DNA from: Pseudoalteromonas translucida KMM 520
GTDB taxonomy: Bacteria > Pseudomonadota > Gammaproteobacteria > Enterobacterales > Alteromonadaceae
DNA: 32,000 nt
NCBI RefSeq assembly: GCF_001465295.1
Contig: NZ_CP011034.1
Coordinates: 3,210,001 to 3,242,000 of the forward strand
Direction: 5' to 3'
Part shown: in pieces, positions 1,929-32,000 of the stretch
Numbering within the stretch: position 1 is the first letter of the stretch
How the letters are laid out: each line of letters begins with the position of its first letter
The notes under the pieces: generated by a model
The model's input: only the letters and a program-made list of their open reading frames with translations
Told to the model about the DNA's origin: nothing
The model's database searches: none
Translations under genes and position numbers: made by a program

Positions 1929-2125
1929 TAACCTGATCTCTGGATAATAAACCTATCTCAAGCAGCTATTTTCAGCGCTAACTGCGTTGAATTTACTTGC
2001 AATAGGCCAGCTATTGACGCGTAAACTCGCCTTATTTTCACTGAAAATCTCTGGCTAGAGAAAATAAAGTTAAATATAACTATAATTCAATACGTTAGTA
2101 AATCTCTTAACCAGAGTTCAGGTTA
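1929..2125 (+). mobile_element. MITE-like TIR element, copy A (197 bp)
   Basis: Runs TAACCTGATCTCTGG ... CCAGAGTTCAGGTTA. It differs from copy B (10819-11015) at only 2 positions. It has no ORF and is intergenic. Confidence 0.8.
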
Positions 2126-8481: not shown

Positions 8482-9816
8482 TTAATCTAATAACTGATTA
8501 CTTGCCTTTAACCTTTGGTACTTCACTATTAATGTTACTCCTCGCATTAGCATAAAGCAGCTCATTGCTAACCATAAACCATTATTCTCCCACTGATGAA
8601 ACACAGCAAACACACCAAAAAAACCAACACTTGCTGAGAGCAGCATACTATTGCGCATAGCTTTTGCCCGGGTAAGCCCAACAAATACACCGTCAAATAA
8701 AAAGCAACTCATTGCCAATAATGGCAAGGCTATAACCCAAGGCAAGTACAGCGTAGCCGTGGTGATCACTTCTGGTACATTAGTTAATAGCGTAATAATA
8801 TAGCGGCCAAATATAGCAAAAAATAAACTGTATGCTAAGGCAAACAGCGCGCCCCAAAACACACTTATTTTTACCCAAAGCTCAATATTTTTTACACTTT
8901 GCTGGCCTTTAGCATGCCCTACTTTTGCCTCACTGGCATAAGCAATGCCGTCGAGTGCAAAGCTTACCAACATTAAAAAGTTAAGTAATACTGCATTTGC
9001 TGCTAGCGTGGTTTCGCCAATTCGTGCGCCGTAAAAGGTCATAAAGCTAAAGCAGAGCTGTAAAATAAATGAGCGAATAAAAATATCACCGTTTAAGCTT
9101 AGTAGGTTTGCCATTTTTGTAATGCTAAACCAACCTGGTACGCTTAGTTTTATGCCGCGTTTTTTAGCTAATTTAATAACTAACACCACGGCAAAAACTA
9201 ACGCGGTGTAATCGGCAATAAGTGACGCCCATGCAGCGCCTGCTACCGCCCAATCTAGGTATACAACAAAATAAATGTCGAGCACTATATTGGTAATATT
9301 AGTCACTAATAATAAATAAAACGGCCCACGGCCATAATGCATACCCAGCATCCAACCTAATAGTACTAAATTACATAAGGCTGCGGGCGCACTAAAAATA
9401 CGAATACTAAAATACTGGTACGCTTGCGTAAGCACGTCGCTATTGGCCGCCGATAAAAATGCAATAGCGTGTTTTATTAAAGGCGATAAGGCGATAAGCA
9501 ATACGGCAACTAAGCAAGAAAGCACTAAGCTGCGTTTTAATAACGCCGCTAATTGGGTTAAATCGTTTTGCCCATAAGCTTGTGCCACTAACCCTGTGGT
9601 GCTCATTCTTAAAAAGCCTGCGAGCCAAAATAATATTGATATAACCGCAGAGCCCAGCGCAATACCGGCTAAATAATGAGCGCTCCCTAAGTGGCCAATT
9701 ACTGCAGTATCAACAATTCCTAACAGTGGGACGGTAATATTTGATAATATCATCGGACCCGCTAACAACAACAAGCTTTTATGGTGTGCTTTATTATGTA
9801 TAAGAAATTGTTTCAT
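8482..9816 (-). CDS. dinF: MATE family efflux transporter, DinF-like
   Basis: PMILSNITVPLLGIVDTAVIGHL and FLRMSTTGLVAQAYG closely match E. coli DinF (PMIFSNITVPLLGLVDTAVIGHL, FLRMSTTGLTAQAYG). It has about 12 TM segments. Confidence 0.9.
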   Translation of the reverse strand: MKQFLIHNKAHHKSLLLLAGPMILSNITVPLLGIVDTAVIGHLGSAHYLAGIALGSAVISILFWLAGFLRMSTTGLVAQAYGQNDLTQLAALLKRSLVLSCLVAVLLIALSPLIKHAIAFLSAANSDVLTQAYQYFSIRIFSAPAALCNLVLLGWMLGMHYGRGPFYLLLVTNITNIVLDIYFVVYLDWAVAGAAWASLIADYTALVFAVVLVIKLAKKRGIKLSVPGWFSITKMANLLSLNGDIFIRSFILQLCFSFMTFYGARIGETTLAANAVLLNFLMLVSFALDGIAYASEAKVGHAKGQQSVKNIELWVKISVFWGALFALAYSLFFAIFGRYIITLLTNVPEVITTATLYLPWVIALPLLAMSCFLFDGVFVGLTRAKAMRNSMLLSASVGFFGVFAVFHQWENNGLWLAMSCFMLMRGVTLIVKYQRLKASNQLLD

Positions 9817-10821
9817 TTAGTATTATTTATCCTTATTAGTATTTCACTGCGCGCTCAAGCAGCCGTTATTTTACAGTATCATCACGTCAGTGAAACCCTT
9901 CCGGCGGTAACCAGTGTTAGCGCGAGTACTTTTACTGAGCACTTAAGTTATTTAAAAGAGCATAACTTTAATGTTGTTCCTTTAGATGAATTAATAACTG
10001 CATTGCAGCAAAAACACACTTTACCAGATAAAACCGTCGCTATTACTTTCGATGATGGTTACAACAATAATTACGACCAAGCAGCGCCCATTTTAGAAAA
10101 ATTTGGCTATCCGTACACAATTTTTGTCAATCCTAAGCTTATAGACGAAGGTAAAGGCTATGTAATGGGGTGGGATAAACTCAAAGAATTAGCAAAAAAA
10201 GGCGCGCTTATTGCCAACCATAGTGGCCAACACGATTATTTACACCATATGCTTGCAAACGAAAGCGAAGCGCAATGGCAAGCCCGCATTAAACAAGACA
10301 TCCTACATTCACAACAGCGTATAAAAACAGAAATTGGCCACGATTATAAATATTTAGCTTATCCGTATGGTGAGTTTAACAATAAATTACAAGCCCTAGT
10401 AACCGAGCTTGGCTTTATTGGTATAGGTCAGCATTCTGGCGCTGTAAATAAAGACTCTAACTTTAGTCGCTTACCGCGTTTTCCGGCTTCGGGCTTTTAT
10501 AGTAAATTAGATACGCTGATCACTAAATTAAATTCTCGCGCATTTAATATAACCGCGCTCACTTATGAAGACAGTGTAACGGCGAAAAACCCACCCAAAC
10601 TCACTATTGAGTTTACTATGGGGGATTTTCATAAAAGTCAGTTTGCTTGTTATGTATCGAGTGTTGGCCAGGCTAATTTAACCTGGATAAATAAAAACAC
10701 AGTAGAAGTCACCTCACCTAAAGCGCTCAATAAAGGCCGTTCGCGCTTTAATTGTACCGCCCCTGCAATTAACAATGCTGGTAGCTATTTTTGGTTTTCG
10801 CAGCCTTGGGTTATTAAATAA
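9796..10821 (+). CDS. Polysaccharide deacetylase (NodB homology) family protein, secreted
   Basis: Signal peptide MYKKLFHLVLFILISISLRAQA and the NodB motif VAITFDDGY. An alternative ATG lies at 9781. The stop TAA (10819-10821) is also the first 3 nt of MITE-like copy B. Confidence 0.85.
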   Translation: MYKKLFHLVLFILISISLRAQAAVILQYHHVSETLPAVTSVSASTFTEHLSYLKEHNFNVVPLDELITALQQKHTLPDKTVAITFDDGYNNNYDQAAPILEKFGYPYTIFVNPKLIDEGKGYVMGWDKLKELAKKGALIANHSGQHDYLHHMLANESEAQWQARIKQDILHSQQRIKTEIGHDYKYLAYPYGEFNNKLQALVTELGFIGIGQHSGAVNKDSNFSRLPRFPASGFYSKLDTLITKLNSRAFNITALTYEDSVTAKNPPKLTIEFTMGDFHKSQFACYVSSVGQANLTWINKNTVEVTSPKALNKGRSRFNCTAPAINNAGSYFWFSQPWVIK

Positions 10822-11015
10822 CCTGAGCTCCGGATAATAAACCTATCTCAAGCAGCTATTTTCAGCGCTAACTGCGTTGAATTTACTTGCAATAGGCCAG
10901 CTATTGACGCGTAAACTCGCCTTATTTTCACTGAAAATCTCTGGCTAGAGAAAATAAAGTTAAATATAACTATAATTCAATACGTTAGTAAATCTCTTAA
11001 CCAGAGTTCAGGTTA
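10819..11015 (+). mobile_element. MITE-like TIR element, copy B (197 bp)
   Basis: Runs TAACCTGAGCTCCGG ... CCAGAGTTCAGGTTA. It matches copy A at 195 of 197 positions. Confidence 0.8.
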
Positions 11016-11036
11016 AATAGCTTAAATTACGGCAGT

Positions 11037-11061
11037 AAAAAAGGAGCCTAGGGCTCCTTTT
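11037..11061. terminator. Bidirectional intrinsic terminator
   Basis: aaaaaaGGAGCC-tag-GGCTCCtttt lies between the convergent deacetylase and SCO genes. An A-run and a T-run flank a GC-rich stem. Confidence 0.7.
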
Positions 11062-11080
11062 AAATTTACTGTTTAAATAA

Positions 11081-23582: not shown

Positions 23583-23668
23583 TCGCAATCCAAATCACAA
23601 ACTTATGAGCTTTCATCATACTCTTTAAGCAACCGTTTTTGTTTATTTAAACAACAATTTAAAGTAGA

Positions 23669-23867
23669 TAACCTGAGCTCCGGTTTAATAAACTTATCTC
23701 AAGCAGCTTATTTTCAGCGCTAACTGCGTTGAATTTTCTTGCAATAGGCCAGCTATTGACGCGTAAATTCGCCTTGGTTTCACTGAAAATCTCTGGCTAG
23801 AGAAAATAAAACTAAATATAACTATGATTCAATACGTTAGTAAATCTCTTATCCTGAGCTCAGGTTA
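23669..23867 (+). mobile_element. MITE-like TIR element, copy C (199 bp, most diverged)
   Basis: Runs TAACCTGAGCTCCGG ... CCTGAGCTCAGGTTA, with the first 12 nt of the TIR perfect. It has roughly a dozen substitutions and two 1-nt indels relative to copy B. Confidence 0.8.
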
Positions 23868-23958
23868 AATACTAAAGAATGGTAAATATGGCTTTAAGTA
23901 AACTTTATCTTTTAGCTTCAAGTCATTAAACTAGCCGCTCCTGTAGTTCACGTATGTG

Positions 23959-30384: not shown

Positions 30385-30440
30385 TTATTCGGGTTTTCTT
30401 CAAGTCATTTTTTGTTAAAGTAGCCCCATATTATCTACAT

Positions 30441-30637
30441 TAACCTGAACTCTGGTTAAGAGATTTACTAACGTATTGAATCATAGTTATATTTAATTTT
30501 ATTTTCTCTAGCCAGAGGTTTTCAGTGAAAACAAGGCGAGTTTACGCGTCAATAGCTGGCCTATTGCAAGTAAATTCAACGCAGTTAGCGCTGAAAATAG
30601 CTGCTTGAGATAAGTTTATTATCCGGAGCTCAGGTTA
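30441..30637 (-). mobile_element. MITE-like TIR element, copy D (197 bp, inverted orientation)
   Basis: It is the reverse complement of copies A-C and has 5 substitutions relative to copy B. Confidence 0.8.
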
Positions 30638-30640
30638 CAT

Positions 30641-30672
30641 TAGCCCGAACTTTGGTTAAGAGATTTACTAAC
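30641..30672 (-). mobile_element. Solo terminus (remnant) of the same element
   Basis: tagcccgaactttggttaagagatttactaac matches 30441-30472 at 29 of 32 positions. It lies 3 nt after copy D and 18 nt before the FMN reductase ATG. Confidence 0.7.
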
Positions 30673-30690
30673 ACATTAGCAGGATAAACC

Positions 30691-31257
30691 ATGACAGCAC
30701 CAAAAATTATTGCTTTAGCAGGTAGTTTACGTAAAGACAGCTTTAATCAACAACTGATCAATGAAGCAGCACGCTTTGCATTAGAAAGTGGTGCAGAAGT
30801 AGAAATAATTAAACTTGCCGATTTAAATATCCCACTTTTTAATCAAGATATTGAAGCGCAAGGTACACCTGCCGATGTGCAGTTGTTAAAAGAGAAATTA
30901 CGTGCTGCAGATGGTATTTTATTAGCCAGCCCTGAGTACAATGGCTCTATTACTGCCGCGCTTAAAAATGCAATCGACTGGGCTTCTCGCACAGAGCAAG
31001 GTGCGGTACCTGCTTTTCGTAATAAAGTTGTGGCGTTATTTGCTGCATCGCCTGGTGGATTAGGTGGTCTACGTGGCTTAAACCACGTACGTGATATTTT
31101 AAGTGGTATTGGCTCATTAGTACTTGCCGATCAGCTAGCGGTACCGGCTGTGCATACTGTACTCGATGAAAACGGCCTAATTAATAACCCAAATACAGCA
31201 GAACAAGTGTCGGCATTAGCGCAACAATTAGTAACCGTTGCCAGCAAGCTTAGCTAA
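30691..31257 (+). CDS. NAD(P)H-dependent FMN reductase family oxidoreductase
   Basis: Flavodoxin-like N-terminus KIIALAGSLRKDSFN, SPEYNGS motif, AGGA RBS. It is divergent from the LysR gene. Confidence 0.88.
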   Translation: MTAPKIIALAGSLRKDSFNQQLINEAARFALESGAEVEIIKLADLNIPLFNQDIEAQGTPADVQLLKEKLRAADGILLASPEYNGSITAALKNAIDWASRTEQGAVPAFRNKVVALFAASPGGLGGLRGLNHVRDILSGIGSLVLADQLAVPAVHTVLDENGLINNPNTAEQVSALAQQLVTVASKLS

Positions 31258-31269
31258 CTAGCTAACACT

Positions 31270-31710
31270 CTATTTTGTCGCCGCAATTTTTGCGGCGATA
31301 AAATCTACATGAGTTACATATAACAAGCCTGCCACTTTACGTATTACGTACTCTTCTTGCGGATCAATCTCACCATCGGCATAGGCCAAGCGCCATAACA
31401 ACTCTATTATTTCAATGCGCTGCGCCGCACTACAATGTTGGTTAATTTGTTTTGAAAACTGAAAATAATCTGTCGCGCTATCCACGCTACTGTTTGCATT
31501 ATTTAGCAGCTCGTTTACGTCTGCATCGTTTAATGCAAAATAGCGTTTTAAGGTAGTTGTTAGAGTATGTTGTTCATTATCATCTAACTTAGCATCTGCG
31601 CGCATTACCTCAATTAATAATGCAGCAACCGCTGTTTTTAAATCATGCTCTTGCATACTTGGCTGTTGCTCATCGAATACAGAAAAAAGTTGTTTTATTT
31701 GTTTGAACAT
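31270..31710 (-). CDS. TerB family (tellurite resistance-like) protein
   Basis: 146 aa with the pattern ..AALLIEVMRADAKLDDNE.. and ..LLWRLAYADGEIDPQEE.., a duplicated TerB-type motif. The ATG at 31710 has AAGGGAAAG upstream. 31713 in the track is a GTG. Confidence 0.8.
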   Translation of the reverse strand: MFKQIKQLFSVFDEQQPSMQEHDLKTAVAALLIEVMRADAKLDDNEQHTLTTTLKRYFALNDADVNELLNNANSSVDSATDYFQFSKQINQHCSAAQRIEIIELLWRLAYADGEIDPQEEYVIRKVAGLLYVTHVDFIAAKIAATK

Positions 31711-31810
31711 CACACTTTCCCTTATTGGGTGTTAAACTTAATATAAATAAATAGCGCTTAATACTGATAGTATTAATGGGTATAAAGTTCGCAAATTAAA
31801 GGAATTATTT

Positions 31811-32000
31811 ATGCAAGGATTAAACATTAGCTTAGTTATTGGCGGTGCTTTGCTAGTTTGTGCAAGCGTAGGCACAGCTTTTGCCAAACAAGCAAAAACA
31901 GAAAAACTCTACGACTTTGATAATAAAGTACATTATTACCAAACAAAACTCGACGATAATAACTATAAAATAGAGATCCAGTCAGACGATTACAAACACT
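31811..32000 (+). CDS. Hypothetical secreted protein (3' partial, runs out of the window)
   Basis: ATG preceded by AAGGA. The N-terminus MQGLNISLVIGGALLVCASVGTAFA/KQ is signal-peptide-like. The frame is open to the end of the window. Confidence 0.5.
   Translation, partial: MQGLNISLVIGGALLVCASVGTAFAKQAKTEKLYDFDNKVHYYQTKLDDNNYKIEIQSDDYKH

Follow-up and report, generated by a model that had tools for sequence, protein, structure and literature searches.

Insertion sequences (IS) of the IS982 family have ends beginning with AC and produce target-site duplications of variable length (3–9 bp). The Correia/NEMIS elements of Neisseria are abundant MITEs with terminal inverted repeats (TIRs), which form a rod in RNA and influence neighbouring genes; they duplicate TA, carry IHF sites and promoters, and are confined to Neisseria. 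ERIC is reportedly an imperfect-palindrome intergenic repeat of 127 bp that is found in several genera, at TA-containing sites and usually in transcribed intergenic regions. It is said to duplicate TA and to have no partner transposase nearby, its transposase family not having been identified, and its orthologous copies are reportedly far more conserved than neutral sites. MITEs derived from the IS982 family are represented by MITECca01/02 of the Cardinium endosymbiont of Oedothorax gibbosus, which are strain-specific, lie beside many intact copies of the parental ISCca4 and have kept parental subterminal sequence (PMC9769881).

The repeat described here was analysed in a 32,000-nt stretch of Pseudoalteromonas translucida KMM 520 (the window), and is very probably a non-autonomous DNA transposon, i.e., a MITE, built on the ends of an IS982-family IS. 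It resembles MITECca01/02 in being short (theirs approx. 240 bp), in having IS982-family inverted repeats and no transposase, and in being multi-copy and presumably moved in trans (PMC9769881). Unlike MITECca, the window element is spread over at least six genera, lacks a neighbouring parent, shows conservation and covariation, and has an interior that is not related to the sampled IS982 elements. Autonomous IS982 elements of Vibrio navarrensis, Shewanella decolorationis, Acinetobacter lwoffii and S. psychrophila agree with it in the ACCTGA... termini (identity up to 20/21), the GGATAA versus GGTTAAG asymmetry and the 6–7 bp TA..TA duplication. However, they are approx. 1 kb long and encode a DDE transposase of 287–300 aa, whereas the window element has 193 nt and no ORF, and the common sequence is confined to approx. 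20–24 nt per end. The likeness to ERIC (intergenic imperfect palindrome, several genera, slow evolution of orthologues) is a functional analogy rather than homology, as there is no sequence similarity and the window element has assignable IS982 ends and a 6–8 bp duplication. With Correia/NEMIS it has in common the MITE structure with TIRs and a predicted rod, whereas the TA duplication and the confinement to Neisseria are Correia features. Literature searches for the sequence, for MITEs of Pseudoalteromonas or Colwellia and for multicopy sRNAs in general returned no description of the family, which appears to be undescribed so far, although IS982-derived MITEs as such are already known.

A preliminary description of the window had delimited four units at 1929–2125 (+), 10819–11015 (+), 23669–23867 (+) and 30441–30637 (−), here called copies A to D, and our analysis confirmed their positions and orientations. 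The copy comparison also reproduced the reported divergence: the two differences between A and B are both in the left terminus, D has five substitutions relative to B, and C, with two 1-nt indels, has diverged furthest. The transposon proper, however, comprises 193–195 nt (e.g., 10821–11013), the terminal TA on each side being part of the target duplication, and the window copies are flanked by direct repeats of 6–7 nt. Beyond the four full copies, the window contains a 37-nt remnant of a fifth. The features are as follows.

1925–1930, + strand: left target-site duplication of copy A, TAACTA (identical 6-mer at 2124–2129)
1931–2123, + strand: copy A, transposon proper, ACCTGATC...GTTCAGGT, in the 3′ region of the SprA-related gene
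2124–2129, + strand: right target-site duplication of copy A, TAACTA
10815–10820, + strand: left target-site duplication of copy B, TAAATA (from the empty-site alignment)
10821–11013, + strand: copy B, transposon proper, absent in 10 contigs of close relatives
11014–11019, + strand: right target-site duplication of copy B, TAAATA (from the empty-site alignment)
23665–23670, + strand: left target-site duplication of copy C, TAGATA (one mismatch to the right duplication)
23671–23865, + strand: copy C, transposon proper, the oldest and most diverged copy, between divergent cbpA-like and endA-like genes
23866–23871, + strand: right target-site duplication of copy C, TAAATA
30436–30442, + strand: first 7-bp target-site duplication of copy D, TACATTA (P. 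distincta, from which copy D is absent, carries TACATTAGC once)
30443–30635, − strand: copy D, transposon proper, inverted relative to A–C
30636–30642, + strand: second 7-bp target-site duplication of copy D, TACATTA
30641–30677, − strand: remnant of a fifth copy, right end only, TAGCCCGAACTTTGGTTAAGAGATTTACTAACACATT, approx. 37 nt, in tandem with D

Copy A lies between a Tex-like S1-domain gene and the SprA-related gene, and copy B between a polysaccharide deacetylase gene and a SCO1/SenC gene; both are inside 3′ UTRs. The right duplication of copy A contains the stop codon TAG (− strand, 2127–2129) of the SprA-related ORF 2127–2993, and from this gene copy A would be transcribed in the “minus” sense. 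Copy B sits between the deacetylase stop codon and a bidirectional terminator (approx. 11040–11063), with the stop codon TAA of ORF 9781–10821 straddling the end of its left duplication. Copy D is located between divergent genes for a LysR-type regulator and an FMN reductase, and the last TA of its second duplication doubles as the terminal TA of the remnant. The latter is directly upstream of the FMN-reductase start codon, is older than D, and is 88–91% identical to the right end of D and of the consensus of subfamily P1. A repeat search found a 42-nt direct repeat adjoining D, which consists mostly of the truncated right end of the fifth copy. P. distincta holds a still more degraded version of the stretch 30641–30677.

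Two further sequence features were seen at these sites. The 8-mer array reported next to copy A is present (TATTTTGA, 5.2 units, 1851–1892); it is perfect and sits between the terminator of the Tex gene and copy A, and its length varies between strains, as locus L155 of a relative has essentially one unit. In copy B, TAAATCT occurs at 10839–10845 and 10991–10997, just inside both terminal repeats, in direct rather than inverted orientation. This motif is conserved across subfamilies and could be an asymmetric protein-binding site.

The left repeat of the element reads ACCTGA(A/G)CTC(T/G)GGATAA, and the right repeat, as reverse complement, ACCTGAACTC(T/G)GGTTAAG. In the family consensus, the TIRs are complementary at 15/15 positions and extend to approx. 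20 nt. The terminus of Lactococcus IS982 is ACCCGAATTGC. When full-length ISs with element-type ends were sought, as had been proposed earlier, they were found in Vibrio, Shewanella and Acinetobacter, but none in the loci that bear copies. An IS982-family element on A. lwoffii pALWVS1.2 has ACCTGAGTTCGA at both ends and TAACTA twice; the copy on S. decolorationis pNi1-3 is 995 bp long with the duplication TAATTTA, and that on V. navarrensis pVN20-VB00237 is 1015 bp long with TAATATT. The left repeat of the V. navarrensis element (ACCTGAACTCTGGATAAGAAA) is identical to the window element at 20/21 positions, and its right repeat has GGTTAAG where the left has GGATAA, which is the asymmetry also seen in the window element. 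The compared transposases score 260–278 bits against NCBIfam NF033520 (IS982; cut-off 130) and carry the RefSeq annotation “IS982 family transposase”; one of them falls into a 90% cluster with proteins of S. psychrophila and S. surugensis. Both ends are present in 32 of 80 metagenomic relatives and begin with ACCTGAGTTCGGGATAAG... or ACGTGAG.... The left flank is TA in 30 of these 32 elements, and the readable right flanks start with TA or TG, with one exception; elements with exact repeats have TAAGTA, TAGAATA or TATTTTA. Thus, the matching ends, the GGATAA/GGTTAAG asymmetry and the TA..TA duplication point to an IS982-family MITE, and the IS630/Tc1-mariner type originally suggested has to be replaced by this family. 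A further IS982-family copy with an element-like left end was found in S. psychrophila CP014782.1 (L255 1245–1631), cut by another IS that carries a DDE_3 (IS630-type) transposase.

The element would accordingly depend on a transposase supplied from elsewhere, and mobilisation in trans by an IS982-family enzyme is what we infer. That no transposase is present in the 32-kb window was confirmed, and an IS982 transposase is absent both from the window and from 1.13 Mb of copy-bearing loci. None was among the best matches listed for Pseudoalteromonas chromids with 12–19 copies, and a P. carrageenovora plasmid with one copy has no transposase in the surrounding 49 kb. Clustering of repeated ORFs in the copy-bearing loci yielded no transposase either, and pairs of termini 0.3–5 kb apart in 926 kb of such loci were few and all located in ordinary genes. 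Partial BLAST matches considered as IS ends were accounted for by truncated copies or by complete copies from diverged subfamilies. An rve-type IS in a close relative (L133 1–745; ERZ15271651 contig_510), which interrupts the MatE gene next to the deacetylase gene, was rejected as a partner since its ends are unrelated. The interior of the element showed no similarity beyond the first 24 nt to any of 86 IS982-bearing loci. As far as sequence comparison can tell, the element is not a simple deletion derivative of IS982, its interior matching no sampled member; perhaps the IS982 parent is missing from the sample, or the interior is of foreign origin.

The coding capacity of the element was assessed, and at 193–197 nt it contains no ORF. 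In copy B there is no ATG on either strand, and its sole GTG ORF is not conserved between subfamilies, which rules out a small peptide or type I toxin. Promoter and terminator scans of the element gave only weak, non-conserved matches. The outward-facing TATAAT pointed out in the preliminary description does exist, but the family varies most in just this part, and the motif is not conserved. A search of the whole window against Rfam 15 gave no match at gathering score, and on the element itself only chance-level hits (E 2.9 and 6.1). An integron attC site was rejected as well, as the copies exceed its length, are dispersed and have no fitting R′/R″ motifs.

Conservation was measured at ten sites where different species have the same insertion. 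Orthologous copies of the element diverge at 46/1971 positions (2.3%), compared with 9.2% in 900 nt of flank. Nearby codon positions diverge by 3.0% (first and second) and 22.3% (third), i.e., the element evolves approx. ten times more slowly than third positions.

Folding of single copies against shuffled sequences gave z-scores of −4.6 and −5.0. For the strand complementary to the orientation used so far (“minus”), RNAalifold predicted a 52-pair rod (−30.8 kcal/mol) in which an outer stem formed by the TIRs leads, via a variable and AT-rich bulge, to an inner hairpin of 117 nt, whose tip CAATAG-GCCAG-CTATTG is invariant; the other strand yielded 25 pairs (−8.1 kcal/mol). The inner inverted repeat and the tip hairpin, both noted before, are indeed present in the units. 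In the minus-strand consensus, 96% of cells are paired and 21 pairs show double changes, values reached by 0/300 shuffles; slid controls gave 32–46%. The consensuses of the three subfamilies fold alike, and the Pseudoalteromonas type differs from the Colwellia type by 8–9 compensatory double changes that preserve the predicted rod. The minus strand is the more stable one in 75/87 copies, and its G·U cells outnumber A·C cells by 311 to 27, although this excess is partly due to the structure having been predicted on the minus strand and to the G+T richness of that strand.

These features can be read in two ways. In the first, the unit would be primarily a structured ncRNA (or single-strand DNA) module, for which the IS982 ends are merely a vehicle, and the 117-nt hairpin would be what is selected; possible roles are a 3′-UTR stabiliser, a target of RNase III or RNase E, an sRNA or a protein-binding site. 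The compensatory changes, the strand difference in folding, the G·U surplus, the slow evolution, the interior unrelated to IS982 and the position of copies A and B inside 3′ UTRs all speak for it. However, Rfam offers no match beyond chance level (search to E ≤ 10), there is no conserved promoter or terminator, the orientation relative to flanking genes is random, the G·U surplus is partly built in, and with only three well-separated subfamilies the covariation represents few independent events. Only tentatively might the interior be regarded as a functional RNA or strand-specific ssDNA/protein-binding module carried on IS982 ends and under purifying selection at individual loci in at least six marine gammaproteobacterial genera, and we consider this doubtful. 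If true, the element would be a mobile, self-spreading regulatory cassette rather than junk.

In the second way of reading, which adds a host-level layer to the IS982-family MITE, inserted copies would be kept under constraint because the unit, especially its minus strand, folds into a long rod. This rod may work in RNA, where transcripts read through the element, or serve as a DNA/protein-binding structure, as proposed for ERIC, REP and Correia elements. The earlier suggestion of selection for a structured element does receive real support from the slow divergence together with the covarying predicted rod. Nevertheless, conserved promoters or terminators are lacking, co-directional copies show no orientation bias (18 versus 21), recent substitutions between orthologues are as frequent in paired as in unpaired columns, with no depletion in the former, and a flank divergence rising with distance also fits recombinational spread. 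By analogy with these systems, a host-level role of the structured interior that keeps fixed copies conserved is conceivable, although we lean somewhat against it. If conservation and covariation do reflect function, the family would be a marine equivalent of ERIC, in which the recruitment of a selfish element for host use (exaptation) can readily be studied.

The low divergence of orthologues could also be explained without selection, either by recent spread between species through homologous recombination or by concerted evolution. In favour of recombination, flank divergence climbs steadily from 5.6% beside the element to approx. 11% at 0.5–1 kb. On the other hand, there is a step from 2.3% within the element to 5.6–6.3% in the adjoining 100 nt (6.3% in the nearest 100 nt of flank; Fisher p = 4e-10 versus the element), and the pattern recurs at ten independent sites. 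Gene conversion, which had been proposed as a cause of the identity between copies, can be dismissed: orthologous copies share private, i.e., copy-specific, variants, and paralogues within one genome are only 91–96% alike. Altogether, we judge this explanation to be rather unlikely as a substitute for selection, but recombinational spread of element-bearing segments may contribute to the low divergence.

Since every copy starts and ends with TA, the preliminary description had considered a duplicated TA dinucleotide, typical of IS630/Tc1-mariner elements, or a TA belonging to the TIR. The empty sites which it proposed to look for were found for copy B. In 10 contigs of relatives, the intergenic region measures 60 nt compared with 259 in the window, and the neighbouring deacetylase of the strains without the copy is 98% identical. 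This agrees with the initial view of the units as a non-coding, TIR-bounded, non-autonomous MITE that moved recently. The empty sequence GGGTTAT-TGAATA-GCTT corresponds to GGGTTAT-TAAATA-[193 nt]-TAAATA-GCTT in the window, so that 6 bp (TA-NN-TA) and not 2 bp are duplicated; the gain is 199 nt, whereas duplication of TA alone would predict 195. Among 91 full-length copies, the junctions have the form U-TA-NN-TA-ACCTGA...TCAGGT-TA-NN-TA-D, and the reconstructed target logo is Y-TA-A-W-TA-R. The 6-nt direct repeat TA-NN-TA is exact in 58/91 and has at most one mismatch in 77/91 copies, in which two to four bases outside each TA are thus duplicated as well; longer duplications are found in five copies (7 nt in three, 8 nt in two). 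Copies with a mutated “first T” carry the mutated base in the right flank as well (L005 with TAATAA at left and right; L001 and L022 are alike). The same variant in both flanks means that TA is part of the duplication and not of the TIR, and that the element ends are ACCTGA...TCAGGT. For the same reason, an IS30-like 2-bp duplication (element including TA, target TA/NN/TA) is less likely. As the termini moreover match IS982-family elements, which themselves have 6–7 bp duplications, a MITE of the IS630/Tc1-mariner type duplicating TA alone is highly improbable, and this reading is refuted by the empty site. Larger segmental duplications, or a palindromic element of the REP/REPIN or IS200/IS605 type, as the multi-copy palindromic intergenic nature of the repeat might suggest, are practically negligible, as junction analysis showed unrelated flanks with similarity stopping exactly at the duplicated 6-mers, and REP and IS200/IS605 elements lack the clear TIRs and variable-sequence target duplications found here.

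For the IS982-family MITE, we propose that a DDE transposase of this family, supplied in trans, would recognise the approx. 20-nt TIRs and insert the 193-nt unit at AT-rich Y-TA-N2-4-TA-R sites, where a staggered cut would duplicate 6 bp, sometimes 7–8 bp. Insertion adjoining an existing copy would recreate the target and give rise to tandem copies, which would explain the tandem junctions seen in L048, L120 and L077 and, in the window, the remnant adjoining D. These data document, for a clade in the little-studied IS982 family, both the target (TA-N2-4-TA, 6–8 bp duplication) and the asymmetry of the ends. Head-to-tail dimers of a diverged subfamily were observed in P. piscicida (L063 6360–6760, L102 7570–7900), in which the second unit is without its first five bases and the junction reads ...CAGGTTAA-TGAACTCGGG....

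Almost all copies (90/91) are intergenic. Where genes were present on both sides (n = 80), 33 copies lie between convergent, 39 between co-directional and 8 between divergent genes; 18 of the co-directional copies are in sense and 21 in antisense orientation. Thus, the family avoids promoters and favours the 3′ ends of genes with no strand preference. Many copies have a stop codon directly adjoining one or the other of their ends, and their position exactly on stop codons or in 3′ untranslated regions would follow from the target containing TAA- or TAG-like words. The insertion of copy B changed ...GAA TAG to ...AAA TAA (...E-stop to ...K-stop). Insertions lengthen 3′ UTRs and rewrite stop codons, and copy D splits the LysR-type regulator gene from its divergent target promoter.

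More than 120 further copies were found in other genomes, which, together with the unrelated flanks, excludes chance as the origin of the repeat. By its protein neighbours, the window belongs to Pseudoalteromonas and is close to strain HL-AS2 and to GCA_040309045.1. A scan with an exact 22-mer from the element centre, which biases the sample towards copies with an intact core, gave at least 120 loci, and together with BLAST against PLSDB the hosts comprise six genera. The 22-mer matched many Pseudoalteromonas species, Colwellia, Thalassotalea, Pseudocolwellia and a Shewanella MAG, with at least 22 matches in C. asteriadis; by BLAST against PLSDB, several Pseudoalteromonas chromids were seen to carry 12–19 copies each, and Catenovulum was added to the hosts. 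The family is widespread in marine Alteromonadales. A scan of viral contigs found no copy. Three subfamilies with a common architecture and 197–209 nt in length can be distinguished, namely P1 (including the window copies), P2 and the Colwellia-type C. A sub-lineage of 209-nt copies in C. asteriadis (e.g., L013 6927–7135) has a 12-nt insertion, CTTATCATATGA, in the inner hairpin. A 528-bp contig assigned to “Psychrobacter” sp. NZS113 (L061) contains one copy, the left flank of which equals L091 and the right flank L095, both from Pseudoalteromonas TB64; contamination or a chimeric assembly caused by the repeat is the probable explanation, and the contig is not evidence for the element in Moraxellales.

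Individual sites illustrate the dynamics of the family. Copy B, absent in close relatives and 99% identical to A, is a recent insertion, and copy A is older. At the orthologous site of copy A in L155 (2359–2413, same flanks), a 49-nt derivative was found in which the termini are joined at a CTG microhomology, revealing how a copy is reduced to a solo-end scar. What looked like an indel between L122 and the window turned out to be a scaffold gap only. P. atlantica HQB-187 (L078 7728–7924) carries an independent insertion in opposite orientation, approx. 60 nt further downstream of the deacetylase gene; the intergenic region behind this gene has been invaded repeatedly. By our result, a repeat that disrupts short-read assemblies of Pseudoalteromonas and Colwellia receives a name and a proposed mechanism. 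Among the metagenome and Logan contigs of the window region 30583–32000 (L123–L129), several end inside copy D.
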